The notes beneath the pieces are model-generated. The model searched no databases. It was given only the letters and a program-made list of their open reading frames with translations, and was not told the origin of the DNA. A stretch of 64,000 bases of DNA, taken from contig JBEWZL010000066.1 in assembly GCA_045837725.1 (NCBI GenBank), positions 372,001 to 436,000 of the forward strand, written 5' to 3'. The translations under genes were made by a program, and so were the position numbers. This stretch comes from Vermamoeba vermiformis. Its lineage: Eukaryota. Position 1 is the first letter of the stretch. Every line of letters starts with the position of its first letter. This document shows, in pieces, positions 1,869-58,475 of this stretch.

Positions 1869-4800
1869 TTAGTTCTCTTCGAGTTGTCTCAAAAGTTGAT
1901 CTATTGAGGGTCGTTGTTCCGGATTCATATTCCAGCACTGCTTCATAATTGAGGCTAGTTTCGTTGGACATGACTCTGGAATGACAGGTGTCAAACCAGA
2001 GTCTCGAATGAGACGACCAACTTCAATCGGATCTCCTTCACTGTGTGGTTCTTGTTGTGCAATAATCTCGTACATTAGTATTCCGAATGACCATACGTCT
2101 AAAAAGAAGAGAGCATTAGGCTTCGTTATTATGATTTTTGAAGGTAGATCCGACGTACCCGACTTAGTAGAGTATTCTTTGCTTCGCAATGCTTCAGGTG
2201 CCATCCATCGAATAGGACCCAGCTCGGACTTTGTCGTTCCTCTCTGATTCTCATCATCGACTAATCTTGACATGCCAAAGTCCGTGATCTTGGGCTCGTT
2301 TTGGTGCAACAAAATGTTTCTCGCTGCAACGTCACGATGCACGATGTTATTCGAATGTAAGTGCAGTAGACCCTGGGCAGCACTGGCAATCCATTTAATC
2401 TTCTCGTCGATGCTGATTGGTCGGAGATTATCAAACAGAGTGTGGTCTAGTGAGCCTTGGTTGCAATATTCGATGATCAAAATGATGCTGTCTGTCTCGG
2501 GATGTACGCTGAATCCGAACAATTGCACGACATTGGGATGAGGTCGCATTTGCATCATGAGCTCGAGCTCACCAATGACAGCTGAATTTGCTTGTGCCAT
2601 GCTCACTTTGAGTGCGACAGTCGTGTTCTTCCATGTGCCTTTGAACACTTGTCCGTTGGCTCCTTGACCGATTGACTCGCCAAACTTGATTTGATCGAAC
2701 GGCGTGAACCATTGGCCGTACTTGGCTTCTAATCCTACAGCAGAGGATGCGTTCCCGTGCTTTCGTACCTTGTTGCGACGTACCAAGAAAAAGGTTAACA
2801 GACCACCTGCGATGACAACGACTCCAACAGGGACGACAATAGCAACAATGAGTGTCGTGTTGTCTTCAGGACTCGATGCAGGCAGAGTGCTTGGTTCATT
2901 GATAGGGCTTACGGGTACTACTGGCACTGTGCCGTCGTCGGTGAGAATCAACACCGTGTTCGAATAACGGCCGTCAACAAACGACACGGCACCACTGACA
3001 AAAGTAAGGCCACGAGAAGGTACTTGCACGACACTAGAGAACAGAAAAGTGTTGCCGATGTCTTCTTGGATCCAAAGGCCAGTAGGAATGTGCAACGAGT
3101 ACATGATGCCATCATCTGCAAATAGAGCCAAAAAGTCTCCAATCATGACAGCTGTAACCGAAGAGTACGATTTGTACAGCGTAATTTGCCAACTTTCTGA
3201 TGCAATGTCGTACCAGTAAACGTTGTTGAACGCATTCGCTGACAGGTCCTTGGCAATCATGTAGATCGTTTTGTTGTTATGGACAAACAGCTGTTTGGGT
3301 TCAATGACAGCTATCTCGGGGAACGGGGCTGTATTGCGCCAGCCTGTTTCGTCGTTGTAGACTAAGAGCCATTGTGAGTTGTTCTTACTCTTCATGTACG
3401 CGTCATTTCCGATGATCGCGGCAACTTGAGAATGCACCATATAATCAAATCGGTTGCCAATGACAGAGTAGCCGGCACTGTCAATCAATTCTTGTTGTAG
3501 CGATGAGTTGATTCGAAACACGGAGGTGTCAAAAAAGGCGAGAACTGTGTCATTGAGTGAGATCACTACGATGTTGTTTTCACCATCGAGCAATTGTGAG
3601 GGCATTGTGATTGGGTCCAGCCACGTGTCATTATTAGTCGTATTAAGAACTTCAATTATTCCGCTTAGTTTGATGTCAGGTGTCTGGTGCATGAGTATGA
3701 GCTGGTCTGCAGTTTGTACGACTAATAGATCCGCGGTATTATTCATCGGTGGTATTGCTGCCATCGGGATAAGAAAAGGCCATTTTGAGCTAACGAGTCC
3801 ATTCGTCAAATAAAAAAATCTGCTGTTGAAAATCAGATCTGGAATGCCGTAGCAGATAAAACTCGTCTTAGTGTAGTCAGCTATTGATTCTGTGATAGTA
3901 TAAAACGTGCAGCCTGATCCAGGGCCTTCAACAAAGAGATAAACGGTGTCATCGACGGGGAAAATCTTCTTGATCTGGCCGACTTTGAACGGCTGATTCA
4001 ACATTGAATCGAAGTTAATAACTAGCACGGTCTGGTTATCCGCAAAGACATATCTGTTTGAGCCCCAGTTGTATCCGGTGACATCGCCTCCCCAGTTAAT
4101 AGAGCTGCTTGTTCCAACTACGCGATCTATATTCAATGTCATCACCACTGAATTGACGGCAAGTTTCCAAACGTAGCCCACGACTTGGTCGGTTCCAAAT
4201 GCAAATAAAAAGGTGTCGTTGTATATTTTTTCGTAGCCAGCAGAAGTATTTGCCCATCGGAACAAGTAGACCGCAGTTTTGGATGCAGGGAACATGTACG
4301 TTAGATTCGGTTGAGATACTGCTAAGTAAAGTGGTTCAATATCCAAGTGATATAACTCGTCTAGAACCGCGTGATATAACACCGTTGTAGTGTTTTGACT
4401 CAACAAGAGCACGTTGTTTTTGAAATTATGCAAGATCTGACTCGGTTGAGTTGGATTCGAATATATTTGTAAGCTGATTGTCTTGTTTAGCAGTTGGTTC
4501 GTGTCTATGTTGTAAATGTAAAGTGTTTCCGAGATCTGATCCGTTGAGTTTCGACCGCCAATGATGAAAATGTATTCTTCGGATGTCAGCACCAGAGGTC
4601 CAACAAGCGACGCCATAATATTGTTCAAATCTTGGGATGAATTCCAAGTGCCGCTAGTGATGTCTAAGAAATCAATGTTCCATTTTCCAAGGACGGTCAA
4701 GGTAGAGGTAGTGTTGTGCAAGGAGAGCGCGCTGACTGTTCGTACGGAAGGGGGATCTGTTGGCAGTTGAGTGAAGCTAACGGCGCTTTCGTTATACACA

Positions 4801-5120
4801 TATGGTTTGTTAGTGTATTCGTGACCTCCAATGAAGTAGGTTAGTCCTCCTAAAACCGCCAGATTTAGATTTGCTCTTGGATTCTGCAGTGTCAAAGGGG
4901 GTTCCCAGGAATTCGTATCTAAATTATATACATCAATAACATTTGACGATATTTTGTCGTTGAGTTCGAAGCCTCCTGCGAAGAGGATTTTGTTGGATTG
5001 GATAGCGGAAGATCCCACAGATGAGCGTTCTGTTGATAATGTAGTCGAGTTAATCACTACTTTGGCATGTATTAATCCAATAAGTGCTAAATACGTGCAT
5101 ATCTCAGCCAAAGAACGCAT
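1869..5120 (-). CDS. Receptor protein kinase (TK/TKL type): signal peptide, Kelch-like beta-propeller ectodomain, one TM helix, kinase domain; copy 1
   Basis: Signal peptide MRSLAEICTYLALIGLIHA; Kelch-like FAGG/FIGG/IIGG repeats; TM LIVAIVVPVGVVVIAGGLLTFFLV; kinase motifs GQGANGQV, VALK, HRDVAARN, DFG, GPIRWMAPE, DVWSFG. One 60-nt intron at 2099-2158; probable 5'UTR intron about 5122-5177. Confidence 0.92.
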   Translation of the reverse strand: MRSLAEICTYLALIGLIHAKVVINSTTLSTERSSVGSSAIQSNKILFAGGFELNDKISSNVIDVYNLDTNSWEPPLTLQNPRANLNLAVLGGLTYFIGGHEYTNKPYVYNESAVSFTQLPTDPPSVRTVSALSLHNTTSTLTVLGKWNIDFLDITSGTWNSSQDLNNIMASLVGPLVLTSEEYIFIIGGRNSTDQISETLYIYNIDTNQLLNKTISLQIYSNPTQPSQILHNFKNNVLLLSQNTTTVLYHAVLDELYHLDIEPLYLAVSQPNLTYMFPASKTAVYLFRWANTSAGYEKIYNDTFLFAFGTDQVVGYVWKLAVNSVVMTLNIDRVVGTSSSINWGGDVTGYNWGSNRYVFADNQTVLVINFDSMLNQPFKVGQIKKIFPVDDTVYLFVEGPGSGCTFYTITESIADYTKTSFICYGIPDLIFNSRFFYLTNGLVSSKWPFLIPMAAIPPMNNTADLLVVQTADQLILMHQTPDIKLSGIIEVLNTTNNDTWLDPITMPSQLLDGENNIVVISLNDTVLAFFDTSVFRINSSLQQELIDSAGYSVIGNRFDYMVHSQVAAIIGNDAYMKSKNNSQWLLVYNDETGWRNTAPFPEIAVIEPKQLFVHNNKTIYMIAKDLSANAFNNVYWYDIASESWQITLYKSYSSVTAVMIGDFLALFADDGIMYSLHIPTGLWIQEDIGNTFLFSSVVQVPSRGLTFVSGAVSFVDGRYSNTVLILTDDGTVPVVPVSPINEPSTLPASSPEDNTTLIVAIVVPVGVVVIAGGLLTFFLVRRNKVRKHGNASSAVGLEAKYGQWFTPFDQIKFGESIGQGANGQVFKGTWKNTTVALKVSMAQANSAVIGELELMMQMRPHPNVVQLFGFSVHPETDSIILIIEYCNQGSLDHTLFDNLRPISIDEKIKWIASAAQGLLHLHSNNIVHRDVAARNILLHQNEPKITDFGMSRLVDDENQRGTTKSELGPIRWMAPEALRSKEYSTKSGTSDLPSKIIITKPNALFFLDVWSFGILMYEIIAQQEPHSEGDPIEVGRLIRDSGLTPVIPESCPTKLASIMKQCWNMNPEQRPSIDQLLRQLEEN

Positions 5121-5644
5121 CCTGAATCAAAAATTAAATCACTCGGACGCGTTACTAATGAAGGGATCTTAACTTACAGCAAGTTTCTTTTTAGTATACT
5201 ATTAATATTGCTGCAATAGACTTCTTCATCACATTGCGATTGCAAAATAACGAAAATTGTTTGTGTTTGTGGTTGGTGATGTGTGAGACAGCTGTCTCCT
5301 TGTGCTCAACTGTCCACTCAACGATAGTGCCTAATATTCTGGTTATAACCAGCCATAGGCTGTCATAATTGCAATTAGCGACAATTTTCGAGTTTTGCAG
5401 TAAATAACGGAAAATTGCTGGGATCCGTTTTTATTGAATCGCGTCAATAAATGGGGTACAGAATGAATGATATATACCTCGCAGAGTCGTACACAGAGCA
5501 CAATATTTGAATAAATGGAGTCCCATACGGTGTGGTTCAAGTGTCAAATGTCAAATCGTGTCTCATTATTTTCCCAGCCTTCTAAGATTGGCACTAAGAT
5601 GCGATCCTAGGATGTCTTTTTTTTTGTTAACGAAAATTTATTTA

Positions 5645-7185
5645 CTAGTCTCCTTTCTCGAGTGCGCCGTTGATTTTTGCGACGCTGAGCGACGGCATTT
5701 TAATCACGTCGAACATTTCAGACACCTTCAACAGTTTGCCTGAGACATCCAAGTACTTCAAGTTCGTTAGTCGAGATATCGCGTGACTAATACCCGCACT
5801 AGTAATACAATCTAACGAATACATCGATAGTGAAGTGAGCCGATCCAAGTTCGATAAATATCGCAGTTCTTCGTCTTGGACATTTTGATTTTTCCAAGTC
5901 CAAATATGCAAATTTTCCAGTTGCGTCATTTGTAGGAATAAATCCGAGACAAAAAATTCAACTGGCAGTGGGCCTGCTAAGCTTAGCTTCTTTAATGCGG
6001 TCATTTTGGTCAGGTGATCCAGCAAGTTCGGCGAGATCTGTTTTGAGCAACAATAATAATCAATATATAGGCTATTATTAATAGAATCATGGCATTATTA
6101 TCGGATACTATCAATTAGTGGCAGTAGAGAAGTTATTTTTTGAATTTTTTTTGGATCTGGATCCGTTCCACTTACATCGATTCTAAGAGCCTTCAGATTG
6201 GTCAATTCAGTCATCCGTAGGTAATGTCCTCGAAAGGTCAGCGAGTCTACTTCTAGGATGGTCAAATTGACCAATGGCAAGCAACTCTCGAATAAAGAAT
6301 TCGACTGGGGGTCGATGATTTGAAACACTCTTAATTGTTCTAAATTTGTCAATTTTTGAATGCCGTGACCAATTTTTCCACCCATTTGTCTTAATTTTAA
6401 TATCTTCAGATTAATTAATGCGTTGAAATCGCCGCGTGATAAATTGACGTTGAAATTTGGTCCGGATAATACTAAGTATGTCACATTTGTCAGTTGAGTC
6501 AGGCCGACCAGATCCACGAACGGAATATTTCGGGCAATTGTTAATTTTAGCTTTCTTAATTTGGTTAATTGTTGTATTGCTGTTATTTCATCAATTTTAT
6601 CGTTTCTTGCTGTTCTTAATATCAATTGCGTGAGCTGGGTACAGCTGTTTGCTATCAAATTGAAATTTCTCGGAAAATACGTCATATTCAGCGTTCGTAA
6701 TGAGGTAATTTTTTCTAGTACGTTGTATAATACTGGTCGTATTGTTGGACCACTTAATGTCAGATCTTGTAGTTTTTGCAATACTGTGAGTTTTTCGAAT
6801 TCGTCTGTATCGCCAACATGGCTTATTTCTATATTTGTAATATTCGGCAATGAGGCGAGTCTCTTGCCAAAATGTAACGAGTGTCCGGGGTTCAATTGAA
6901 CTGTATGTACAAATAATCGACACGCGTGACTGATTTTATTCACAATGGATGCCCTAAATAATGACAATTTAATGCAATACAATAATAAAATTATAATCTG
7001 CTGGTGCGTTGTGACAAATAAATTTTCGTCATTATGAAAAATATTTTAAAATTAGGGACAAACGATCAAGAGTAAATAGACGGTTGTACAATATTTTACC
7101 TTAGTATATCTCGCGTTCCTAAATGTTTCAAAATTAAGTTCCAGATTTCGGATGGCAAAGTAAGTTCTTCGACGCGCCAATCCAT
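5645..7185 (-). CDS. F-box + leucine-rich repeat protein
   Basis: Exon 1 (7185 to ~7100) reads MDWRVEELTLPSEIWNLILKHLGTRDIL (F-box LPxEI…I…L). Later exons carry many LTNLxxLxL repeats. Introns at about 6955-7099 and 6040-6107. Confidence 0.8.
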
Positions 7186-7806: not shown

Positions 7807-10800
7807 TTAGTTCTCTTCGAGTTGTCGTAGAATTTGATCTATTGAGGGTCGTTGTTCCGGATTCATATTCCAACACTGCTTCATAATCGAGGCTAGCTTC
7901 GTTGGACAGGACTCTGGAATGACAGGTGTCAAACCAGTGTCTCGAATAAGACGACCAACTTCAATCGGATCTGCGTCGCTATGGGGTTCTTGTTGTGCGA
8001 TAATCTCGTACATTAGCACTGCAAAGGACCATACATCTAATAAGTAAATTGTATTAGATACGAAAAATGCGTTTGAAGACCAGATCTGTCATACCTGACT
8101 TCGTTGAATATTCTTTGCTTCGCAATGCTTCAGGTGCCATCCATCGAATAGGTCCAAGTTCAGACTTAGTGGTTCCTTTCTTATTATCTTCATCGACTAA
8201 TCTTGACATGCCAAAGTCAGTGATCTTGGGTTCGTTCTGGTGCAACAAAATGTTTCTCGCTGCAACGTCACGATGCACGATATTATTCGAATGTAAGTGC
8301 GAGTAGACCTTTGGCGACATTAGCGATCCATTTGACTTTCTCCTCGGCTGTGATTGGTCGGTTATGATCGAACAAGGTATTGTCCAGTGAGCCTTGGTTG
8401 CAATATTCGATGATCAAAATGATGCTGTCTGTCTCAGGATGTACGCTGAATCCGAACAGTTGCACGACATTGGGATGTGGTCGCATTTGCATCATGAGCT
8501 CGAGCTCGCCAATGACAGCTGAATTAGCTTGTGCCATGCTCACTTTGAGTGCGACAGTCGTGTTCTTCCATGTGCCTTTGAACACTTGTCCGTTGGCTCC
8601 TTGACCGATTGACTCACCAAACTTGATTTGATTGAACGGTGTGAACCATTGGCCATACTTGGCTTCTAAGCCAATGACAGAGGATGTATTGCCGTGCTTT
8701 CGTTTTTTGTTGCGACGTACCAAGAAAAAAATTAACAGACCACTTGCGATGGCAACAGCTCCAACAGGCACGACAATAGCAACGATTAGCGTCGTGTTGT
8801 CTCCATTAGAAGCAGCAGGTTGAGTGTTTGGATCAAGGACGTTTTGAGGAACTGTTGGGACTATACCGTCGTCAGTGAGAATCAGAACTGTGTCCGAAAA
8901 CGTGCCATCGAGAAATGACGTGGCACCACTGGCGAATGTCAGACCACGAGAAAGCATTTGAACAACGCTAGAGAACAAATAAGCGTTCGCAATGTCTTCT
9001 TCGATCCAAACGCCACTAGGAATGTGCAGCGAGTACATTTTGCCGTCATCGGCAAAAAGTGCCAAGAAATCTCCGACCATGATTGCTGTCGTTCTGCTTT
9101 GAGGCGTGTGTTGCGTGATTTGCCAAGTTTGCGAGTCAATGTAGTATAAATAGACTTGATTGAATACTTTTGTTTCGACGTTTTGAGCAATCATGTAGAT
9201 CACTTTGTCGTAAACGAAAAGCTGTTTGGGCTCAAGTATAGGCCCATCAGGGAACGGCGTCGTGGTGCGCCAGCCAGTCTCGCTGTTATAGACTAACAGA
9301 TGTTGCGAGTTGTTTTTGCTCTTCATGTACACGTCATTTCCGACGACCGCGGCGACTTGACTGTGAACGTGATAGCTGAACGAGTTGCCAAAAACAGAGT
9401 AGTCGGCGGTATCTAACAATTCATATTGTTCCAACGAATGAATTCTGAACTGAGACGTGTTGAAAAATGCCAAAACTGTGTCATTGAGCGAGGTTGCAAC
9501 GAGATTGTTTTCGCCATCTCCGATCAATTCTGATGGCATTGGTATCGGATCCAGCCACGTGCCATTAATGTGGTTGTATACTTCGACCATTTCGCTCAAT
9601 ACAACTTGAGGTGTCTTGTTCATCATAATCAATTGATCATCGGTTTGAGCTATCAGTAGATCCGTTGTCGTAATTGGTTCAAATGACATTATCGGATTGC
9701 CTGCTGGCCATGGTACGCTGTGTCCGGCGCTTAAATATAGAAAACTGTCGTAGGTGACTAGATCTGGTATATCCAAGCAAGGGTGAATTGCCATAACGAA
9801 AGCTGTAGGCGTTTCTGTGGTAACGTATATACAGCCTGGTGCTAATTGCTCGGCGAAGATTATTAAAGTGTCGTTTGTGGTGAATATCTTCCGGATCTTG
9901 CCAACGTTAAAGTTTTGTGACATTAATGTGGAAAAGTTGACAATTACAACACTGTCGGTGCCCGCAAAGACGTATCTATCAGGAGCCCAAACATAGCCGT
10001 CAACAGTGCCACTCCAATCGATGCTGTTGCTGGGAAGTGGACTTGACGTAGTCACGTAGCCCTGGAGGAAGATAATTTGGTTGGCAAATGGGCGAATGAA
10101 GCCAACGTAGTCGCCATATCCAAACGGGAACAGAAAATTCTTCTAGGATCGTATTGTAGTTGGTTGTAGTATTTTTCCAAATATAGGCAAAAATTTGGAC
10201 TCGTGTAACGGAGAACAAGAAAGTGATGTTCGTAGCTGTTGTTGCATAGACGATCGGGGTTGCCTCCAAGTGCTTAATTTGGTCGTCAGTCACGTGATAC
10301 AGCAGCGTTGTATTGTCTTGATTCACGACGAGCACGTCGTTGTTGAAATGAGTCAAGATCCGACTGCCTCTGGAAGCGAAAGGGTTCACAAAAATTTCCA
10401 ATGTAGTTGATTGGACTACTAATGTATTGGTTTCTATGTTGAATATGTAGAGCGAATCCGAGATCTGATCTGTTGAGTTTCGACCGCCAATGATGAAGAC
10501 GTATTTTTCGGCTGGAATTACTAGAGGTCCAACAAGCGATGCCATAATATTATGCAAGATTTCGGATGAATTCCAAGTGCCGCTAGTGATATCCAATAAA
10601 TCAATGCTCCTTTTGCCAACAACAGTCAAGATCGAGTTGTGCAAGGAGATGTCGCTGATTGTTCGCACGGAGGGAGGATCTGTTGCTGATCGCAAGAAGC
10701 TGCTGTTGCCAGCATTGTATATATACGGCTTGTTGGTATAGTCGCGGCCTCCAATTAAATACAGATGTTCCTTAAGAATCACTGGATTTAGATTTGCTCG

Positions 10801-11041
10801 TGGATGTTTCAGTGTCATTGGAGGCTCCCAAATATTTTCGTCTAAATTATATACATCGACTGACGTTAGACGAAATATAGTCATTGAGCTTAAATCCTCC
10901 AGTAAAGAAGATTTTGTTCTCGGATTGGATGGCCCCCACAGATGAGCGTACTACTGATAGGCTAGTTGAATTAATTACTACTTTGCATTGAATTAACCCA
11001 AGAAGAGCTAATAATATGCATACTTCGGCTAAACCACGCAT
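7807..11041 (-). CDS. Receptor protein kinase, tandem paralog (copy 2); three apparent +1 frameshifts (~10861, ~10140, ~8301), so error-disrupted or a pseudogene
   Basis: Collinear with 1869-5120 from the signal peptide (MRGLAEVCILLALLGLIQC) to the identical end (…RQLEEN). The kinase domain is nearly identical. Same intron position (8037-8094) and the same 5'UTR intron arrangement. Confidence 0.85.
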
Positions 11042-14977: not shown

Positions 14978-15407
14978 TGCTGCTCTTGATTTCAAACGGA
15001 CAATAAAATGAAGCGGGATAATTCATTTATTTAAAACCTTCAAAAGATAACGACGAGGGGCAAGAATCGTCCAAATTCATACCAACCAACAACACGTTGG
15101 TGCACTTGAAGGTTGGCATCTCGTTGACACGTAACCAACGAGTCCCATTGGCGCGATCCAACTTCTTGCCATTGTGGACAATAATTTTTATTATTAGAAT
15201 TTAAACCCGCGAAAAGACTTCAATAGAGTTCAATCTGCATCTCTCTTCACCAAAAATTAAAAAAGACTTTAAAAAATAATTCGCACAATGGTCGCTTCGT
15301 ATGATGCTAATTACAAACTGTTTTGCTCAAAATTTAATAATTATCTTATTAGCCTCGCTAATTTGGACCTTCAGGCGTTAAGGCTGATCCATAGCAAAGT
15401 TATCACA

Positions 15408-29901: not shown

Positions 29902-31522
29902 ATGGATGCACTTAATGAAGGATTGCTGGCTTCTTTGCCATCCGAATTATTAAGACTTATATTGAATTATTCTGACGCCTATGATATCGTTAAGTAAGTC
30001 TGTAATGTCAATAAATACTCATCTGATCCGTTTTCACAACAGAAATTCGTTAAAATTATTCAAAAATATGTTTACGTATGTAATATCGATACCCTATTAA
30101 CCCACATATTATGGCCTAGTTTATCGATGACAACCAAAATATTTGTGTCGCAGATCTGGCAATTAGTCCCAAAGTTCTACTTACCATACACCTCAAGCTC
30201 GAAAATAGGCTTACTATTTAATAAGCCATTTATCGCCCTAGAAGATTTCGAAATTCATTATAAAGAGCACCTCAACCGTCCAGTTTCTTTTGATTGTTTC
30301 AACGGATGCAAAAGTTTGACCCGGATGTGGGTCTCAAACAAACTCCCCGTTGAACACCCTATCAAATTGATATCAAATATTACAACATTGCGAGAATTAA
30401 CGTTAGAAAATCTCAACGTATTTGGAGACACTTTAGATTTTTCAAAGCATCTGACACAACACACTCGATTGACTTCTTTAGCCGTACAATCTGATACTAT
30501 CCTACATAGTAAGTACATATAATATATAATCCATTATATTCGGCCTCAAATCTTCGAAGGGTTGAGATCTAGATCGTATTTTTTCACCCGGATCGGTGGA
30601 TCCGCTCATTTTTAACTTATCTTATTCTAATAATAGAATATTCTAATAATTATAATAGTTGAAAACACATCATATATGACGCGTTTAAGATCGTTGTCGC
30701 TTAATATTTCACAGCTGCAAACAATGCCTGACAAAGTTTTGGCACCTTTGACCAACCTGACGTACCTCAAGGTAAACTTATTTAAACTTTTAATATTAAC
30801 TAATACTTATATATAATTAGATGTATAGTATGTTTTCGTCTACATTCTTCGCAGCCCTAACAAACTTGCGTGACTTGATCTGGTTGGATGTACCTCAAAC
30901 TATTCCAGATTGCTACTCGAGCGATCCAATGCAATTGGCTCATTTTAAGTCCTATATACTAAATAAGGAAAATCGCAATATCGAAACAGAAGATTACGAC
31001 AGTATCTCAAGATTGACAAATTTGCGAAGTTTCTCGACCATAATGCCCTTCGATATTAGTGCATTGCCAAATTTGGAAAAACTCGAGATCGGAAGCGATC
31101 TATTTAAAGAATTACTTCCAATGTCAAAAGTCGTGGATCTGACAGTTCATGACACGTTCATAACGCCAGATGCGTCAAACATATTCAACTTGACACAATT
31201 AACTAGACTGGCTATTATACGCCCTATTTGGCACGATACCAATGCAAGTCAATTTTTCAGCGAAATTTCAAAGTTATCAAATTTAGTCCAATTCGAGTAC
31301 GACGGCGAAGTGTCATCAGCGGATCTGATCCAAAATTTGCAAGGCATTACAACGCTACAGAAACTAACTGTTCCTATTGAACACGTCATTAATAGTGACT
31401 CTATGACCATATTAACTCAACTACGCACGGTCAATTTGATTTCAGAGTCGCGTAAGAAATTCAACGGATGTGCCCAGAAACATTGGCCGTTTGACTTTGT
31501 ATTCGTGTTGCGACAAATATAA
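29902..31522 (+). CDS. F-box + leucine-rich repeat protein
   Basis: Exon 1 MDALNEGLLASLPSELLRLILNYSDAYDIV (F-box); LTNLxxL repeats in later exons. Confidence 0.8.
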
Positions 31523-36726: not shown

Positions 36727-37909
36727 TTAGGCACTAGCACTGAAAAATTTACCAGCAGCCACCTTCGACACAGAATTCACTGAAATTTTAACGGGGGTGA
36801 CTAGATCTTGTTGATCTCCATCACCGCATTGACCAGTAGCGTTTCCTCCAAAAGCCCAAACATTACCATCAGTATCCGCTATAAGTGAGTGCAATAGACC
36901 TCCAGAAACGTCCTTTGCAGTTTTGAAATTCGGCAATGCAAGCATGGTCGGGCAAAATTCGTCGAGTCTATCGCCGAGTGCCTAATTGACCGAATGTATT
37001 TGCACCCCAAACAAAGATATTGCCGTTGCTCATAATGGCCAATGAATGAGCCGCCCCTCCCGTGATTTTTACAATAGTGCCGAAGTTGTTCATGTTCGTG
37101 ATGTTGGCGCGCACAGGCAAATAAGTTGGCTGATCGGAGGCAGATCCGGTGCCTAACTGACCCACAGCGTTGTCTCCCCAAGCAAATAGCATCACACCCG
37201 AGCTAGGGGTGGGGACTGCGAATGAATGGTCCTCGCCGGTGCCTATTAAAGCAATAGCAGGTAAACCGTGGATTGGATTTGGTACGTTCGAGAAAGGTTC
37301 CTCGAAATTTCTTCCAGTGCCTAATTGACCCATAGAATTATCACCCCATGTGTATACTGTACCGTCATTAGTTAATGCCATTGAGTGTTGGTACCCTGCT
37401 ACGACTTGTACGATCACAAAGTTTTGATCGAAAAACGCGATCTTCTTCGGAGTAGGGATTATATTCTGATCCATATTATCTGCTACTTGACCGCGATAAT
37501 TCCAACCCCAAGCAAGCACTTTACCAGCATTAGTTTTAGCCAAAACATGACCTTGACCGCAGCTGATCGACGTGATTTTTTCTTTGGTCTTTACGAGCAC
37601 AGGTGATGCTTGATTAATACCAGAACCATCGCCTAATTGTCCAACTGTATTATCTCCCCAAGAGTACGCAGATCCAGATGTACCAACTGCAACACAAAAA
37701 TTCTCGCCACAACAAATATCTTGAATTTTTTCGTTCTTCATAATAGTGGCATTAATAGGGGAAGGCGTGGTAATTATTTTGCCAATTGTTGAACTTCCTG
37801 AGCCAAGTTCACCTGCCGAGTTGAATCCCCAAGTATGAACGCTGGCAGATGCGACAGAAATAATCGCAAGAAAAGCAAATAAAAATGCTAGCTTAAATTG
37901 TGCGTGCAT
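36727..37909 (-). CDS. Secreted RCC1/BLIP-II-type beta-propeller protein; one apparent +1 frameshift at ~36976
   Basis: Signal peptide MHAQFKLAFLFAFLAIISVASA; seven WGxNxxGQLG-type repeats, the last in the shifted frame ending at 36727. Intronless. Confidence 0.85.
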
Positions 37910-38388
37910 GGCTGTTGTGCTATTACGGTTAGACAAATCTGACAAAAACAACAAATTTTGTTCGCGAACACTATTTAGGGAGGAATATTTAGGCCAATAT
38001 TTAGTACCCGCGTTAACTAAAGGCATCACTATTAATATAGTTTGACGTAGTCTTGCTTTTGGTAGCAATTTCAGACTCAGATCAGATCGCGTGTTGAAAC
38101 AGGCAAATGGCACCATGTACAATAATGAAAAGGGTTTATTTACAATGCAGAACTCAATTTAAAGCATGGAATTCGTTCACATTTGCCGAGTGTTCCTATG
38201 ACTACCAGTACAAATGAACGAATCTGCTTGCAAGTTGAATAATCTGCGTGAGCTGCAACAGGGAAGGATAAATAATATTAACAAAATAAAAACGTGGATA
38301 TCTTGCTTAAAAGATACCTTACACGTTCAAAATTTGGATTCGGAAGCAAATCCGTTACGCGAGATCCGCTTTCAATAAGCAAGCTAGC

Positions 38389-50751: not shown

Positions 50752-52352
50752 ATGACTAAGTTGGCTGTAGTCGTCGCACTTTTTGCTTTGATCGGCATTG
50801 CTGCTCCGCATCTGCTTCATTCTCCTTCTCTGGAAACGTTACTTTGGCTGATAGCCAAAGCTTCAACTACAGAGCAGTCAGTAAGTATCGTCCCTCGATA
50901 TCTTGACGCAAGTTATAACGTTTATACATCCGGATTTGAAGTGGTTGCTAACGAATTTTTAATCTAGACATGGGTGTTTGGAGTGTCCTCAATCTTTGGT
51001 CTGGTGCTTGGTACGCCTCCGTTGAGGCTAAAGCCTCTGGCAACTCTGGCAGCCTCGATAGCTTGTGGGGTTGTAAGTATCTTCTTTTATTCCGTTAAAA
51101 TTTTCGATCAAATCCATGCGCCACCAAAAAATTAATTAACTAACGCATGCCCTTTGCAGCTGCTTACACCGGTCTCGGTAACTTCCCTGTCACCACCTTG
51201 GCTTACTTCAATGTCGACGCTCAACTCGGCAACACCCAAAACTGGGCTCAATTGGATGTTTCTGGCTGTAAGTATTTATTATCATTTACGACCGATACTC
51301 GATGCAGAATCTTTAAACTCGTAAAGATTTACATTAATTCAATTTTAATAATTGTGAATTCCACCAGTAATTGAATTTAATATCGTTTATTTATTACTTT
51401 GATACGCCGCGGTAATTTACTTGCAAATTTGATTTGATTCAATTCGTACCACGACGGTATGTTCGTCATTATGACCATTATTTTCGAGGTTGAAATTATG
51501 TTTGTGAATTGTTTCGGCCCGCTCAAGTCTGAATCTGACACTTTCCGTGCTTAGCTGCTGGTTTCATTGCCAACTCCTACGTCGCCCTCACCGAGAAGGA
51601 CTCTAACGGCAACGTCGTCAATGTCTACGGCTTGAACTCCGTCGTCTGGGGCCTCGTTGATTCTGGCAGCAACAACGGATTGCACTGGGCTACCTTCCAA
51701 GCCACCCAAGCCAACAAGTTCACCGTGACTTTGACTTACTTCGCCTCTGAAGTCGTCGGTACTGTCGATATTGCTGGTACTACCGTCGTTACTCCTCGGT
51801 AAGTTTTCATTTGAGTTTTCCGGATTTGATCGCGCGGCCGGATGTCGCAAATTGACTCGTTCTTATATGATGCCGAATAGACTTACTAACGTTAATAATG
51901 ATAGTACCCTCGAGTCTGTCTTCGCCGTTAAGGACTACCAATACGCCAACAGCGCCAACACCGTGACTTTGACCCTCGGAGTTGCCTCTGGATCTGCTTC
52001 CGCTTCTGCCTCCGGTCAAATCACCGTTGGTACTGGTAACGAGCAAATGTACCTCGTCCTCGCCAGCGATGCCTTGGTTGGTGCTCAACTCAAGCCCGTC
52101 TCGATCTCTGCTTTCGCCAGCGCTTCTTTGTCTGCTAACTTCAACAACGACGTTGTGGCTCAAGTTACTGGCAAGTTTGGCGGATCTGCTTCTGCTCAAA
52201 TTGTCAACGTTACCTTCCCTGCTGGTGCTACTTCCTTCGAGTACGACCCTACCATTGGTAACGGCCCCGTTCCTCAAGTTGCTGGTGGAATCCAATCCGC
52301 TCCTGCTTTGATCTTGATGGCTGCCGTTATGGCCATTAAGTTGTTCTTCTAA
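50752..52352 (+). CDS. Highly expressed secreted/GPI-anchored surface protein of unknown family; one base apparently missing at ~50806
   Basis: Signal peptide MTKLAVVVALFALIGIAA; only the shifted frame ASASFSFSGNVTLADSQSFNYRAV joins exon 2 in phase. A/S/G/V-rich with strong codon bias; ends YDPTIGNG…APALILMAAVMAIKLFF. Confidence 0.8.
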
Positions 52353-52582: not shown

Positions 52583-55500
52583 TCAAATCAATCGTTCTCG
52601 TGAGTTAGCCGACGATTCAGTGATAGCGGAGTAACTCGACTCCTCGTCTAAGAAAATATGAACCTCATCCTTCGAAAGGACTTGCTTGACTTCCTCGACA
52701 ATGGTCGCATCTTGCAACTGAGCCTTGATCTTCTCAAAGTTTCGTTCGATGTGCGTGTACAAGCTGATAAGGCCTTGGTCTTTGGCGGCACGAGGAATAT
52801 CGACGTCAACTGGATCGTTCATGACAACCTAGATAGAGCTAATCAGTATATGACGATAAAGTGTGATTTCTGAGGCAAAATGGATTCCATCCATGACTTA
52901 CGGTAATGGTGTCATAATATCTGTGGAGCTTGGGCAAGTTTCTAGTTAAGAATTCGTTCATGAACAAGAAGTCCTTTTCGTGCGGCATGAACTGGACTTC
53001 ATTCGCAAGCTTGGTCAACACGCGTGCAATCAACATTAGCGCACGTGGTGTAGCGGTTAGATTGCGTGCGCTGACGATGCCGTTTGTGGTGGACAACAAG
53101 ACTGACGGGGAGATGAAGCGCAAGAACAAAAATGCACCGATGGACTTGTAGGCACTGTTCGGGAACTTGTTCTCGACGTTGGTCCGCAACATTTGACAGA
53201 GCTGTTGGATCTGCTGAGGCATGCGTTGTGGTTGGTCAATGATAGCATTGAACACTTGTTCGCATAGGGCTTGCAAGTTGATACGATTGGCTTCAACATT
53301 ATCTTCGGCATCCAACTTCAAAGTTTCCACCTGTTACATTTTCACGTTAGATCTACATCCATTATCCTTTCAAAAAAGAGCTACTTTCAATTTTTTTTTG
53401 TAGGCGATATTGTGGTGATTAAAATAGCATGTTTTAGTAAAGAGTCGAAAAAGTTGAGGTGTTTGGATCCGGTACGTTACCTCGCAGCGAATGTTATGAC
53501 GAATAATAGGCTCCAATACGGGCTCGAGAATAGCCTTCAAATAACTAGCGCCAATGATGTTAGCGTAGCTGCCCATAATCTTGCTAGCCATGCTGTCTTG
53601 TCGGAACAACGTTGTCTCTTGATGAGTCTTTTGGACCTAAAAAAGATACGCAGCTGTAATTAGCACCTTATTTGAAAGTTAAAAATAGGATTTTAAAATG
53701 AATACGTGCCTCAATGGAAACGAGCTTCTCAAGTAGATCTAAGCAGCATCGTTGAGACTGGAAAATAAAGCTGAGTGCTTTAGCAGTGTGGTCCATTTCA
53801 GCGGCATTGGCTGCGCGACAAACAGCCACTGCTAAGGCGTAGTCGTTTGACGCATCCGTCAGGATCTGAAATTGAAAATAATCAGTCCCGAACCAAAACT
53901 TCCATGAAAATGTCATAATAAAGCTACATTATACTCATTAAAAATTTCTTTGTATTTTGCTACTTACTCGTTCCAATCTTGCCAATCGTTCCGGATGTAC
54001 GTCACCGTTAGGCACCAAAGCATTAGGACCGCGGAAAGGCATGTACTTGACTTGGTCTTGTCGTTGTTTTCTATTGTAGTATAGTATTAAGAAGGTAATA
54101 GCACCTGCTGTAACTGCGGCAATGACGACGACAGTCGGGGCAATGATGCGCGGATCTGCACTGGCCAGGATCTCGCCCACCGTACGGTTCATAGAATCTA
54201 CCAAAATAGCATCATATTAGTATCATCGTATAGTAGGTGCCTAGCTCTACGATATATATGCCGTAGTATTTAAATAGAGTGTTGTCTTACCTCTAATCCA
54301 CGTGCAGTTTGCGGTGCAAGCCGTGCCGCCCAAAGGACCTTGATCGCATTCCTCGCCACTCTGAACAACCAAATCACCGCAAAAAGCTATATAATAACAT
54401 ATTAGTTAACATTATACGCTTGAGATTGCGAACTGAAGTGTTTTTGAACGTTTAAGTTCTCATCCGGTTGGAAGGCTTACCCATAGCTAAAGTCGGAGCA
54501 CCAACGCCAGATTCTCGCGAGTAGAATGATACAGTATCAGTTTGAGAAATAGCGCGCTTGCCTGGGTTCATCATGCTCACACGCAGAGTTAAATAACGAG
54601 AAGTTAAGGCGCGGTCCATCATTGCGAGAGAATTGTCTAAGCTAATAGCAAGACCTTCTTCGTCAATAGTGCACATGGTTAAGCGATCTTGTTCGGTCTT
54701 GTGGAAAGTCAGACCCTCTGTTAAATTAAAAAAGATTATCAGATCGCGCCTTTAAAATTAAAACGGATATTATGCCCCCATAAATATTCAAATACGTAGA
54801 ATATATTAGTGTGATAATATTGGTGTTGTCTAGGAGGCTAAAAAAGAGTTACTTACGTCTGTTAGTGCTGGATACGGTAGTCTCGTCCCAATTATCCACT
54901 TGTTCGATGTAAACAGCGCATTCGTACGTAGTAGGAGATACAACTCTTTGAGCAATACGTTCCAAGAACAAGCTACATGGTAGTAGTGTTGTTAGACGGA
55001 TGATTTGTAACGGATTTACCAAACGAAATCTTTTGAATGAATAAGAGCACTTACGTAAGAGAGTTCATGCTATTAACGTTATCAGGGATATTCCACTTCA
55101 AGTAGATATCGATGTAGTAGCTCAGCACAAGCTCGTCGCTGCTGCCGTTAACCGGAGAGGTGACCGAGTTGTCGTTCTGGCGAAAAAAAAGTAAGCTACT
55201 GCTCTTAAATATTTAAATTTAATATGTCGTCATATGATCTTTAGCGTTAAATTCAAAATTTGAAATTGTTTAAGGCGGATCTAACAGCAGATTTGGCGGT
55301 ACAATATGCCTGATTTCGCTATTCTCGAGCAATAGCTATAAAAACGATATTATTAGTACTTACGCTAAGCGAAGTATCGCCGCCAGCCCAGAACAAGGTC
55401 GGTTGTTCTTGATCCTCTCCATCCACCACAACAGGCGTAGCAACAGGACCACTCACTGGAGATCCAGCAGTAGGTGAATAGCCTGTAGGGGATTGAGTAG

Positions 55501-56474
55501 GTGGAATCGATGGCGCTAATGGATTTGACGAGGGGATGTAGCTCGGGATAGGTGGGATCGATGGCGCTAATGGATTTGACGGCGGCGGGATGTAGTAGGT
55601 CGGAGTAATGGGCGCGATAGACGGCGCCATGGGATTGCCGTATGGAGTATCAATAGGAGAGCTCGATGGTGGTATTGAAGGGGCAATAGGATTGTCTATT
55701 GGGGGACTCACGTATGTAGGAACAGAGACAACTGCAGGCGCATCTAAATAAAGTCAATTAATATTGTAGAATGCATCTATATAATAATGATAGGTCCGAG
55801 TATATTAAATTATACTAGCAGAGGTATTAAGTGTAATCGAACGCTTAGGAGATGGTTTGGTTCGCATTGCGAATCTGATCTCGTTCTAAAAATAGCTCCC
55901 AAATTGATTATGACTTGGGAAGTGGCATAATAAGAGTATCGATATCGAATTTAATCATTATCTCGATGGCTCAAGTGTTGGCGGGCACATCCGATGTTTA
56001 ATTCAATTGCTATTTGGATTATTAGAACACTTACTTGTCATATTGATTGCTTGCTCGAGTAAAGCTGCGTCGATATCATTCTAAATAAGAAACTACATTA
56101 GGAAATGACTCATAAGCATAACTGTTACGTAATGGAATGAATTTTTGTCGTTGAATCGCAATCGCCCGTAACAAGGTTTAATTTGTAAATGGCGTCATTG
56201 CTCAAATATTAAGTATATTTAAGCGAATAGTATTATAAGTGGTCGCTTCACTGAAGTATATCATCGTTAGATAATTTCAAAAAGTTGGAAATTCAAAATA
56301 ATGATCTACTCTTTTGTTTAATTAAATTGCTTACTGATTCATTTTCTGCGCATAATACTCCACTAAGTGACGCTATTATATACAGATTATTACTACATTG
56401 TTACGATTTTGTTTCAGGATGTGATTGATCTTACCAACCGCAATTACGCACACAAATAATGACAACCACTTCAT
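52583..56474 (-). CDS. Single-pass transmembrane receptor with a cytoplasmic RasGAP domain
   Basis: Signal peptide MKWLSLFVCVIAV; Pro-rich stalk; globular beta domain; CGDLVVQSGEECD…CTANC disulfide repeat; TM IIAPTVVVIAAVTAGAITFLILYY; GAP motifs TTLFRQDSMASK, YLKAILEP, GAFLFLRFISP, LIARVLTKLAN. Confidence 0.85.
55490..55700 (-). repeat. Coding Pro-rich tandem repeat (NP[L/M/I]APSI[P/A]P x4)
   Basis: Near-identical 31-nt blocks at 55500-55530 and 55551-55581, plus two diverged copies. Confidence 0.8.
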
Positions 56475-57021
56475 ATTTAATGCTGTCAATATTGTGGCAC
56501 TATGTACAAATAAATAACATAAATTAAGTGCACAAAAAGCGCAACGAGTCTCATTTTTGGTTGACGTTTTGGATGACACTTTTAACGACGTGACAGGTCA
56601 AGTAGGAATTCAGCTAAAAGGACATTAGGCACTCGAATAAGAAGTAGACTCTACCGATCTATTCTTTTTTGAGGATCCGTACTGAATAATCAAAGAAATA
56701 TTGACTGTAATGAAAATAGGTGACATTCGTCACGTGATTGTCAGTATTTGTGACGTTACAAGTCGTCATTATTTGGGACCTTCCTACAAAAAAACCAATT
56801 TTGCCATGGCTACTCGCCATGACTTTCCAGAATAGCTACTAGGTAACATTCGTTTATAGAGATATTAGCTCAAGGTTTTTTACAAGGTTTTTAACGAGCT
56901 TGTGTGCAGATACGTAGTCGTAGTACAAAGACCGTAAGTGTCGCGGAGATCTGATCCTTAGACATGCGTACAAGCAGTTACTAAACGACCCTTTATTCAA
57001 TGAGCAAGTGTAATGTACTAT

Positions 57022-58100
57022 TTATGCTAGTACAGAAAGGGTTGCCGCGAGTAAAATAACGAAGAAAGCTGTCGGACCATGACTGGATGTGCCCGATGTT
57101 GTCGTTGCCTTTGGTGTTGCTGTAGGAGTTGCCGTAGGACTTAGAGAGCTGGGTTGATTGCTCGTAGGGGCTACACCTACAGTGCAGATCTTGCCGTCAC
57201 CAGTGTAGCCTTCATTGCACGTGCATTCGTAACTCCACGACTTCATCGCGCATGATGCGTTTGGATCGCAGTCGTGCAGATCCGTTGCGCACTGGTCTTG
57301 CGGAATAATCCAGAGGTCGTTGAAAATATTCCCCGAAAGAGTCGGATAACTTTCTCCGCCAAAGATAAGCAAGTTGCCCTTAGCATTGAGACCGTGTTCG
57401 ATTGCGTAGCTGTGTCTGGATCCCAGCTGAGATCCTGCGCCGCGGTACTGGCCGTACACGTGATTGACGTTAGTATCGTTGTTTGGATTGCCAAAAACGA
57501 CTTTCCAAAGTTTGCTAGTCTTGTCGAATATCCAAATGTCGTTCAAAGCCGTGTTTTTGGATGCAATTCTTCCGCCGTACATCATGATAGTGCCATCCCG
57601 CCTGTCAACCATACTCGCCAGATCACGTTGACACGGGAAATTTCCGATGTCAAAAGTGTCAAATGAGACAACATTGCCCTGGAACAACGTGCTGTTCGTC
57701 TCTCGCTCAACGCGCCACGTGACATTTTTGGTGTCAAATGACCACATGTCATTCCAGTTCGTAGGACTCGTTTCTGCGTACCCGCCAAACAGCCACACGC
57801 GATCATCCGTGTCAATCGTGCAGCCTGGGGCCCATCGACCAGGCCAGAAGAGATTGGCGTAGTCCGGATCTTGAACGGCGGATGTCGGATCTCCATGCTG
57901 CAGACTCCACATGTGCGATGTCGTGTTGTAGTGCCACACGCCACTGAAAGCTCTGTTATAATAGCCGCCAAACATCCAAAGATTGTTCTTCGAGTCAACG
58001 ACCATGCATGCGCCTTGAAGTCGACCAGGCCAGTACTGTGCGGATGCAACTCCGGGTGCAATTTTTTTTTTTTTTTTGGGTCCCGTTTGTGTTTGTGGTG

Positions 58101-58131
<31 letters not shown>

Positions 58132-58475
58132 TTTTTGTGGGGGGGTTTTTTTTTTTTTTTAAAAAAAAACCCCCCCCCCCCCCCCCCCTCGGAAAGTATT
58201 CAGGGACTACGAGAGTTGTTAATATTTAAACTGAAGAAACGGAATCATATAAGCAAGCAAGATTTGCTTAATGTGGAATTCCAAAAATGATTTAATTTAA
58301 CGTCTGGTCCCAACTTTTTGATACTAAACTGATTGGTGAATAATCAATGTAATTGGTTCTTACCAAAATAGTCGGAGGTTGCATTTAAAGGAGAGATCCA
58401 GAACATTTCAGGTGCTGTTGCAATGACACCCGTTGACAGAACAACGGCATACATAAATAAATGCAACGCCCGCAT
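57022..58475 (-). CDS. Secreted/GPI-anchored Kelch-repeat + EGF-like surface protein
   Basis: Signal peptide MRALHLFMYAVVLSTGVIATA; WMFGG/WLFGG/MYGG/IFGG repeats; EGF CDPNASC…YECTCNEGYTGDGKIC; S/T/P stalk and hydrophobic tail. Confidence 0.85.
58062..58188. repeat. Garbled T/G/A/C homopolymer tract, probable sequencing artefact obscuring a splice acceptor
   Basis: Consecutive homopolymer runs of all four bases directly abutting coding sequence. Confidence 0.65.

Follow-up and report, generated by a model that had tools for sequence, protein, structure and literature searches.

A predicted single-pass membrane receptor with a neurofibromin-like RasGAP domain in Vermamoeba vermiformis and its relatives

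The window analysed in this study is a stretch of 64,000 nucleotides (nt) of Vermamoeba vermiformis DNA (assembly GCA_045837725.1, contig JBEWZL010000066.1, positions 372,001 to 436,000 of the forward strand), and all coordinates below refer to it. A gene for a predicted membrane receptor with an intracellular RasGAP domain (GAP, GTPase-activating protein) occupies positions 52583..56474 on the minus strand, in a eukaryotic region rich in introns; all features of this gene lie on the same strand. The gene model comprises 13 coding exons and encodes 763 amino acids (aa) without an internal stop. Exons 1 to 7 lie at 56474-56435, 56372-56335, 56080-56035, 55743-55364, 55176-55055, 54972-54857 and 54717-54481, and exons 8 to 13 at 54386-54291, 54197-53968, 53865-53710, 53636-53481, 53330-52902 and 52828-52583. 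The intron borders are GT-AG in 11 of the 12 introns and GC-AG in one, a 73-nt intron at 53637..53709. The signal peptide, Pro-rich stalk, beta domain, disulfide repeat, single transmembrane (TM) helix and contiguous RasGAP domain described in an initial annotation of this DNA are all present in the 763-aa model.

The largest GAP exon was used for a protein search, which retrieved two proteins out of 262 candidates. P0001 is a complete Trinity open reading frame (ORF) of 739 aa labelled Vermamoeba vermiformis, and P0002 is a Logan/JGI protein of 746 aa with a cluster member, P0004, on a 2273-nt contig. Both are colinear with the model over 12 of 12 exon junctions. Four public sequencing runs were also mapped to the region, namely, X1 and X2, which are presumed to be RNA, and X10 and X12, which are RNA reads from a related strain (mostly 85-95% alike). 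Spliced joints of all 12 introns are present in contigs of X1 and X2, and a single 2053-nt contig of X2 begins in the stalk exon at 55639 and continues without a break into the last exon, to 52594. The raw X10/X12 reads cover three joints; the GC-AG intron is one of these (one read in X10, nine in X12), and its joint is found in contigs of both X1 and X2. The receptor RasGAP gene is real and expressed, and its ectodomain, TM helix and GAP are encoded by one spliced mRNA. The continuity from 56474 to 52583 that the initial annotation assumed is thereby established, and separate transcripts for ectodomain and GAP are ruled out by the spliced contig and the ORFs of the orthologues. A 22-codon hydrophobic ORF at 56486-56554 (minus strand), read by eye, stops 11 nt 5' of the start codon and is a possible upstream ORF.

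Hydrophobic segments occur only at aa 1-24 and at about aa 377-399, the latter followed by basic residues (Kyte-Doolittle), and from this hydropathy and an AlphaFold helix we infer a type I single-pass membrane protein. The predicted signal peptide (aa 1-22; 56347..56474) crosses intron 1, has a Kyte-Doolittle 19-mer peak of 2.47 and is identical at 20 of 22 residues in P0001 and 19 of 22 in P0002. The Pro/Ser/Thr-rich stalk (aa 43-150; 55418..55741), which precedes the beta domain, contains 32 prolines in 108 aa and four NPxAPSIxP units, and its predicted local distance difference test score (pLDDT) is below 50. The CBM96/DNRLRE-like beta domain (aa ~156-327; 54385..55402; exons 4-8) is acidic and about 175 aa long. 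It is followed by a four-cysteine repeat of the form CGD...EECD...C...C (aa 328-356; 54298..54384), which reads CGDLVVQSGEECD and has a single exon of its own. This repeat resembles the Myxococcus disulfide repeat and DUF4215, with scores that are all sub-threshold (TIGR02232, 11.7-17.8 bits over model positions 4-30, cut-off 20.8; DUF4215, 12.9-16 bits, cut-off 27). The TM helix (aa ~377-399; 54076..54144) is predicted by both a hydropathy peak of 2.32 and an AlphaFold helix (pLDDT ~72-74), in agreement with the initial annotation. The juxtamembrane linker (aa 400-427; 53992..54075) carries a conserved YxxF (54045-54034), possibly a sorting or regulatory motif, which aligns with a D[YF]xxx[AI][YF] motif common to many TM-RasGAPs. 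Beyond the GAP, a short acidic, Ser-rich tail (aa 738-763; 52586..52663) runs to the stop. Pfam gave no CRAL-TRIO (Sec14) or PH-like match of the neurofibromin/MNF type, and the protein ends about 26 aa past the helical domain. Identity to P0001 and P0002 is 38 and 36% in the stalk, 76 and 77% in the beta domain, 87 and 84% in the cysteine repeat, and 94 and 90% in the GAP core. The AlphaFold model, built from a 34-row alignment, is confident for the GAP and weak for the beta domain. Weak Pfam matches to PspB, MAPEG, BimA and the like were discarded as TM or Pro-rich noise.

The RasGAP domain (aa ~428-737; 52664..53991) is contiguous and neurofibromin-like, without an RBD insert. Pfam RasGAP (PF00616) matches P0001 with 99 bits (cut-off 28.3) and single window exons with 73.2 and 30.7 bits, and phmmer aligns P0001 403-692 with the GAP-related domain (GRD) of NF1 at E=2e-33, continuously over about 290 aa with gaps of at most four residues. 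The predicted domain (AlphaFold pLDDT mostly >90) reaches VIA-align Z scores of 31.0 with NF1 (6v6f_B), 30.7 with p120GAP, 29.5 with SynGAP and 24.9 with plexin B1 (3hm6). Identity is 25% to NF1 (root-mean-square deviation 2.5, 292 aligned) versus 15% to plexin B1, and Foldseek ranks NF1 first and the plexins much lower. An unsplit NF1/p120-like GAP, as initially proposed, is supported by the phmmer and VIA-align scores.

Residue conservation was counted over 134 other GAP domains. Both catalytic arginines noted in the initial annotation are retained and align with NF1: the arginine finger R499 (NF1 R1276, in TLFRQDS; 53601..53603) and R610 of the FLR motif (NF1 R1391; 53118..53120) are each Arg in 134 of 134 domains. 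R635, N649 and E657 are retained as well. Five Ras-contact sites are changed, namely, D501 in the finger loop (NF1 N1278; Asn in 116/134) and, within 52980..53024, R642 (K1423; Lys in 131/134), T645 (Q1426; Gln in 126/134), K646 (Asn in 109/134) and H656 (K1436; Lys in 125/134). All five substitutions are also found in P0001 and P0002, and the window protein thus departs from the conserved Ras-contact residues of RasGAPs (NF1 N1278, K1423, Q1426 and K1436). The altered KxLQxLAN motif (RVLTKLAN) singled out earlier is present; it is just one piece of this five-site change, which makes plain Ras shut-off less sure. Among the variant sites listed within aa 436-682, 9 of 11 are silent (38 of 195 sites classified). 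The pattern of conservation indicates strong constraint on the GAP fold and catalytic arginines, together with a remodelled surface towards the substrate. The substrate or strength of the GAP is probably non-standard because five near-invariant Ras-contact residues are changed.

The beta domain had been guessed to be CBM96/DNRLRE-like, and this guess gained moderate support. ESM Atlas features of P0002 134-308 resemble those of CBM96 clusters at 0.94 (named-cluster filter, 156 of 256 features shared), and a longer P0001 piece without the filter reaches 0.79-0.82. A profile built from six CBM96 domains of this genome gives 6-7 bits for the domains of the window protein, P0001 and P0002, a level that 3, 1 and 0 of 200 shuffles reach, respectively, and that no tile out of 76 cut from other ectodomains attains; on a paralogue of the gene (contig C263) it beats 194 of 200 shuffles. 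Pfam CBM96 (PF24517, cut-off 26 bits) lends further support through a sub-threshold match in the paralogue-type protein P0166 (18.9 bits, E=0.0014); the paralogue exon reaches 17.7 bits. Several results count against the assignment. Both of these scores lie below the cut-off, and P0001 and P0002 themselves have no Pfam CBM96 match. In hhalign, the match of the beta domain to CBM96 is weak, with a probability of 4-18%. A fold search with the low-confidence model of the domain (pLDDT 34-66) did not return the CBM96 structure 7VBO among the 50 matches listed; the same model gave weak, generic matches (Z 4-5) to various beta-sandwich structures. One of these, pro-activin (5hly, Z 4.0), is reported in passages of PMC9971899 to resemble CBM96 in structure. 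The same passages describe alginate binding by CBM96 through Lys/Arg residues mostly near the N-terminus. Judged by composition, such basic residues are probably unmatched in the acidic beta domain, which has 12 Lys/Arg versus 21 Asp/Glu overall and 2 versus 7 in its first 60 aa. A CBM96-like fold is likely but unproven, and a polyanion ligand such as alginate is doubtful because the domain is acidic. Shorter proteins carrying the beta domain were also sought, and the two matches obtained were both fragments of genes of this type. Clear CBM96 genes exist elsewhere in this genome (C113, C63, C121, C171 and C219; loci L041-L055), some in tandem or on Thr/Pro-rich surface proteins; the Atlas clusters of the CBM96 family are mostly bacterial, whereas these loci are eukaryotic.

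The gene is not the one-off that the initial annotation implied. The paralogue on contig C263 (612 aa, 14 exons, 35% identity over 607 aligned positions) keeps the beta domain, the cysteine repeat in the same exon, the TM helix and the GAP, and its model has no stalk; it has a normal RSNS finger and the K1423-equivalent lysine. P0166 is a full-length database relative of this paralogue. A genome scan with PF00616 and reading of the matching stretches gave 45 RasGAP-like loci, including the window gene. A TM segment with a basic tail lies 177-292 nt before the GAP in 14 of the 44 other loci (L077 doubtful), and a linker profile adds five further loci. About 19 of the 45 loci, L077 left out, have a TM segment directly before the GAP; this is an exon-level count, and alternative haplotypes may account for part of the copies (C35, C221 and C203 share one TM sequence). 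The TM and basic-tail filter is also passed by 46 of 600 random windows, and for this reason the hydrophobic stretches that precede the GAPs of L023 and L068 were ascribed to chance. L077 (C282:197k) lacks an evident ectodomain and has a hydrophobic segment immediately before its RasGAP; in the trees it groups close to the TM-RasGAPs, with a long branch of its own.

The ectodomains of the 19 TM-RasGAPs are of the PSI/IPT type in 11, leucine-rich repeats (LRR) in four, CBM96-like in two and beta-helix-like in two; the PSI/TIG assignment of L024 and L040 and the LRR assignment of L034 are confirmed by Pfam, the others were assigned by eye, and L081 and L082 were assigned by likeness to L080. Four tandem genes at C282:156000-186000 (L024, L025, L040) combine PSI/IPT units, a TM helix and an unsplit RasGAP in a plexin-like layout, and seven further PSI/IPT TM-RasGAPs lie on C298, C77 (two), C101, C35, C221 and C203. 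LRR ectodomains in single exons of 627-688 aa are found on C30, C306, C84 and C302:488k (L033, L034, L039, L075), joined to a TM-RasGAP close to the PSI/IPT type. Long Gly/Ser/Thr-rich ectodomains that appear beta-helix-like by eye, with a PSI-like unit before the TM helix, occur on C12 (L028, L035) and in P0036 and P0048. On the side of possible targets, the genome holds at least 143 GTPase exon matches to PF00071 (best 150 of 484 candidates scored), Rab and Rho types included. Judged by these domain layouts, the window gene is probably one member of a modular amoebozoan receptor RasGAP family.

The family extends to other organisms. P0001 matched 3469 representatives at E<=0.001, and the analysis covered the 150 best of them; this ranking favours TM proteins because the query itself holds a TM helix. 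A TM segment with a basic tail lies 39-83 aa before the GAP in 31 of these 150, and P0063 was added by eye. The ectodomains (30 scanned, 26 of them TM candidates) include bacterial-type Ig/cadherin repeats, PSI and TIG, EGF, laminin-G, L-type lectin, and disintegrin with TIG. Organism names were obtained for 7 of 20 entries looked up, namely, Gocevia, Balamuthia, Cavostelium, Clastostelium (two), Soliformovum and Thecamonas trahens, and with Vermamoeba the TM-RasGAPs span Tubulinea, Discosea, Evosea and Apusozoa. Six of the relatives (P0007, P0008, P0009, P0010, P0012 and P0014) are long receptors (up to 4200 aa) whose ectodomains hold bacterial-type Ig/cadherin repeats; after the TM helix they apparently have two RasGAPs in tandem, seen as two matching stretches (RasGAP, 197-248 bits). 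The Thecamonas protein (P0053, XP_013755410.1), annotated 'disintegrin', has TIG, six disintegrin-like repeats, a TM helix and a RasGAP, and is an apusomonad receptor RasGAP. The database members carry automatic names such as 'ira2' and 'disintegrin', and no description of non-plexin membrane-spanning RasGAPs was found in the main-text passages covered. The TM-RasGAP receptor family is apparently undescribed; homologs of the same architecture are many, and none was found described.

Quick trees showed strong clustering of the TM label (2 changes versus a shuffled mean of 23.7), with a 25-row TM clade at support 95 and the true NF1-like rows in a separate clade. The PSI/IPT and LRR receptors of this genome share a clade with support 99, indicating an exchange of ectodomains. 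In the free trees, the trio of P0001, P0002 and P0166 falls outside the 25-row clade on a long branch. Forcing the trio into the clade, or all TM rows together, gave trees 10.9-17.2 log-likelihood units better, with approximately unbiased test values (p-AU) of 0.75, 0.69 and 0.75. A single origin of the TM-RasGAPs, including the window subfamily, is allowed by these trees, and a separate fusion of TM and GAP in the window subfamily is possible.

Plexins are the standard example of receptors that contain a RasGAP fold. The window protein shares with them the predicted type I layout and a cytoplasmic domain of RasGAP fold. Neither Sema nor PSI nor TIG was matched in its ectodomain at E<=5, and the folded part of the ectodomain is only about 200 aa; the GAP aligns continuously with NF1 instead of being split by an RBD insert. 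The protein is not a plexin on domain content because it has neither Sema/PSI/IPT domains nor the RBD split, though its mode of action may be similar. The initial annotation had called it an independently evolved plexin analogue; the distinction from plexins stands, and the independence is not established, since TM-GAP relatives carry PSI-IPT stalks that match plexins in the PDB. Two of these, P0062 and P0022 (Gocevia), have a signal peptide, an N-terminal domain of about 330 aa, PSI-IPT repeats, a TM helix and an unsplit NF1-like GAP, and the best PDB matches of their ectodomains are plexins A4, A1 and A2 (E=7e-17 and 7e-10). Their N-terminal ~330 aa gave no Sema match and one weak WD40 match (E=0.0055), and a propeller is suspected there. 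A profile of 27 TM-RasGAPs found NF1, p120GAP, SynGAP and IQGAP, and no plexin cytoplasmic domain among the best 60 of 100 matches. Scans of this genome with Plexin_cytopl and Sema gave no match either; the controls were likewise silent, so these scans are no evidence of absence. Shared ancestry of the PSI-IPT TM-RasGAPs with plexins and convergence both fit, because PSI and IPT are mobile domains, and neither is shown or excluded by these comparisons.

We lean towards a reading in which the window protein is a receptor: engagement of its ectodomain would position the GAP, and probably also control its activity, so that one specific GTPase of the Ras subfamily is turned off at that site. A receptor is suggested because the same TM-GAP chassis carries swapped ectodomains across the family. 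The CBM96-like domain would bind an outside ligand, such as a polymer on the surface of prey, of the substrate or of a neighbouring cell, and binding would cluster or re-orient the receptors. The GAP, about 30 residues below the membrane and beside lipid-anchored GTPases, would then switch off its target at the contact point, and this local switch-off would limit Ras-driven actin patches in cups, pseudopods or adhesion. The target would probably be a particular divergent Ras/Rap paralogue, or the GAP may be weak until clustered, because the five changed Ras-contact residues are conserved as changed. That the window protein couples to a ligand, binds a glycan or acts in phagocytosis, as initially suggested, is conceivable in this setting. 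Passages of PMC4374526 and PMC12871552 report that NF1 restricts how large macropinocytic and phagocytic cups become in Dictyostelium, and passages of PMC3787391 that plexin GAPs are activated by ligand-induced dimerisation via the juxtamembrane segment. Two points pull the other way: the K1423 equivalent is Arg and the Q1426 and K1436 equivalents are also lost, and ligand binding may affect only the placement of the GAP, not its activity.

The TM helix and ectodomain could instead merely anchor a constitutive GAP to a membrane domain, adhesion site or endomembrane, with no transmembrane signal. The conserved YxxF, about 10 residues below the TM helix in both paralogues, could be a sorting signal for such an anchor, the linker is short, and no autoinhibitory module is evident in the model. 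We nevertheless consider mere tethering rather improbable: the ectodomain is 76-77% conserved, more than an anchor needs, and many ligand-binding ectodomain types are exchanged over the family, a pattern with which positioning by ligand without allostery is still compatible. The five near-invariant substrate-contact sites, kept as changed in three orthologues, and the long branch of the window subfamily raise a different alternative, a pseudo-GAP or scaffold receptor whose fold binds a GTPase or partner without hydrolysis, or restrains a partner that is itself active, for instance the paralogue. The IQGAP GRD, which binds without driving hydrolysis, is a precedent. K1423, the residue at the R642 site, is also described as essential for GAP activity in passages of PMC4374526 on NF1. 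Loss of activity is nonetheless unlikely in our view, as both catalytic arginines and R635, N649 and E657 are kept, the Lys-to-Arg change is conservative, the paralogue keeps the lysine, and plexins diverge at the same region yet are active RapGAPs (passages of PMC3787391). Finally, that the model wrongly fuses a neighbouring surface-protein gene with a cytosolic RasGAP gene can practically be dismissed, since one spliced contig covers stalk to tail, independent transcript assemblies (P0001 and P0002, aligned over all junctions) give complete ORFs with the same layout and the paralogue repeats it, which leaves nothing specific in its favour beyond the general hazard of hand-built models.

A broader evolutionary reading is tentative and would not surprise us if wrong. 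Receptor RasGAPs may be an old class, present in the amoeba-animal common ancestor, that swaps ectodomains on one TM-GAP chassis. The window gene would be a glycan-sensor version with re-tuned GTPase specificity, and plexins would have arisen from a propeller-PSI-IPT version through the RBD insert and a semaphorin partner. Passages of PMC6374515 and PMC8011033 place the origin of plexins in the choanoflagellate and animal ancestor and leave amoebae unmentioned ('amoeb' 0 times in each).

Other genes of the window were also recorded. The upstream neighbour (57022-58200, minus strand) encodes Kelch repeats, an EGF domain, a Ser/Thr stretch and a hydrophobic end resembling a glycosylphosphatidylinositol anchor signal; its 5' part (~58100-58200) consists of a series of homopolymers that looks like an assembly error. 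The convergent neighbour (51735-52352, plus strand) has a hydrophobic C-terminus and no Pfam match, and X10/X12 reads cover its 3' end. Two genes at 1869-5126 and 8283-10950 (minus strand) encode Kelch repeats together with Tyr/Ser-Thr kinase domains, and their products are probably receptor kinases. The remaining genes include LRR proteins at 6098-7045 and 30821-31522, a 14-3-3 protein at 15273 and RCC1 repeats at 36968-38158.

The present case adds an apparently undescribed variant of the receptor-GAP idea and an entry to a TM-RasGAP family that bears on plexin origins. Unsplit NF1-like GAP receptors in all three amoebozoan branches and an apusomonad provide a testable candidate plexin precursor, or a striking parallel; if the class is old and ancestral to plexins, the origin of plexin-type signalling moves back beyond choanoflagellates. 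They also suggest a route by which outside cues could shut Ras off directly at the contacts and feeding cups of amoebae, sites whose known GAPs are all cytosolic. The 763-aa member and its 612-aa paralogue are small and practical for assays and structure determination.

The protein can be compared with several known systems. Plexins are alike in being type I receptors whose cytoplasmic part has a RasGAP fold directly beneath the membrane (plexin B1, Z 24.9), whereas the window protein lacks their Sema-PSI-IPT ectodomain and split GAP and is far nearer NF1; its sister genes in the genome have PSI/IPT stalks but an unsplit GAP. NF1 GRD (1nf1, 6v65/6v6f, 6ob2), p120RasGAP (1wer, 1wq1) and SynGAP (3bxj) share the unsplit RasGAP fold, arginine finger and FLR arginine. 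These proteins are cytosolic, whereas the window GAP sits on its own TM helix without Sec14/PH, C2, PH or SH2 domains and is changed at the NF1 N1278, K1423, Q1426 and K1436 positions. CBM96/DNRLRE (PF24517; TM6-N4, PDB 7VBO; passages of PMC9971899) is similar to the beta domain in size, predicted all-beta structure and ESM features; it is basic and found on bacterial enzymes or S-layers, whereas the window domain is acidic, below the cut-off and on a eukaryotic signalling receptor. Dictyostelium NF1/AxeB, RGBARG, IqgC, C2GAP2 and NfaA are likewise amoebozoan RasGAPs and shape Ras patches at cups, but they are recruited from the cytosol, and none is described as membrane-spanning in the passages concerned (PMC4374526, PMC12871552). 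The amoebozoan single-pass receptor kinases and cyclases, as presented in passages of PMC4053784, PMC4758236 and PMC5804921, also form expanded families with an ectodomain that binds protein or polysaccharide, a TM helix and an enzyme; their output is a kinase or cyclase, whereas that of the window receptor would be a GAP off-switch.

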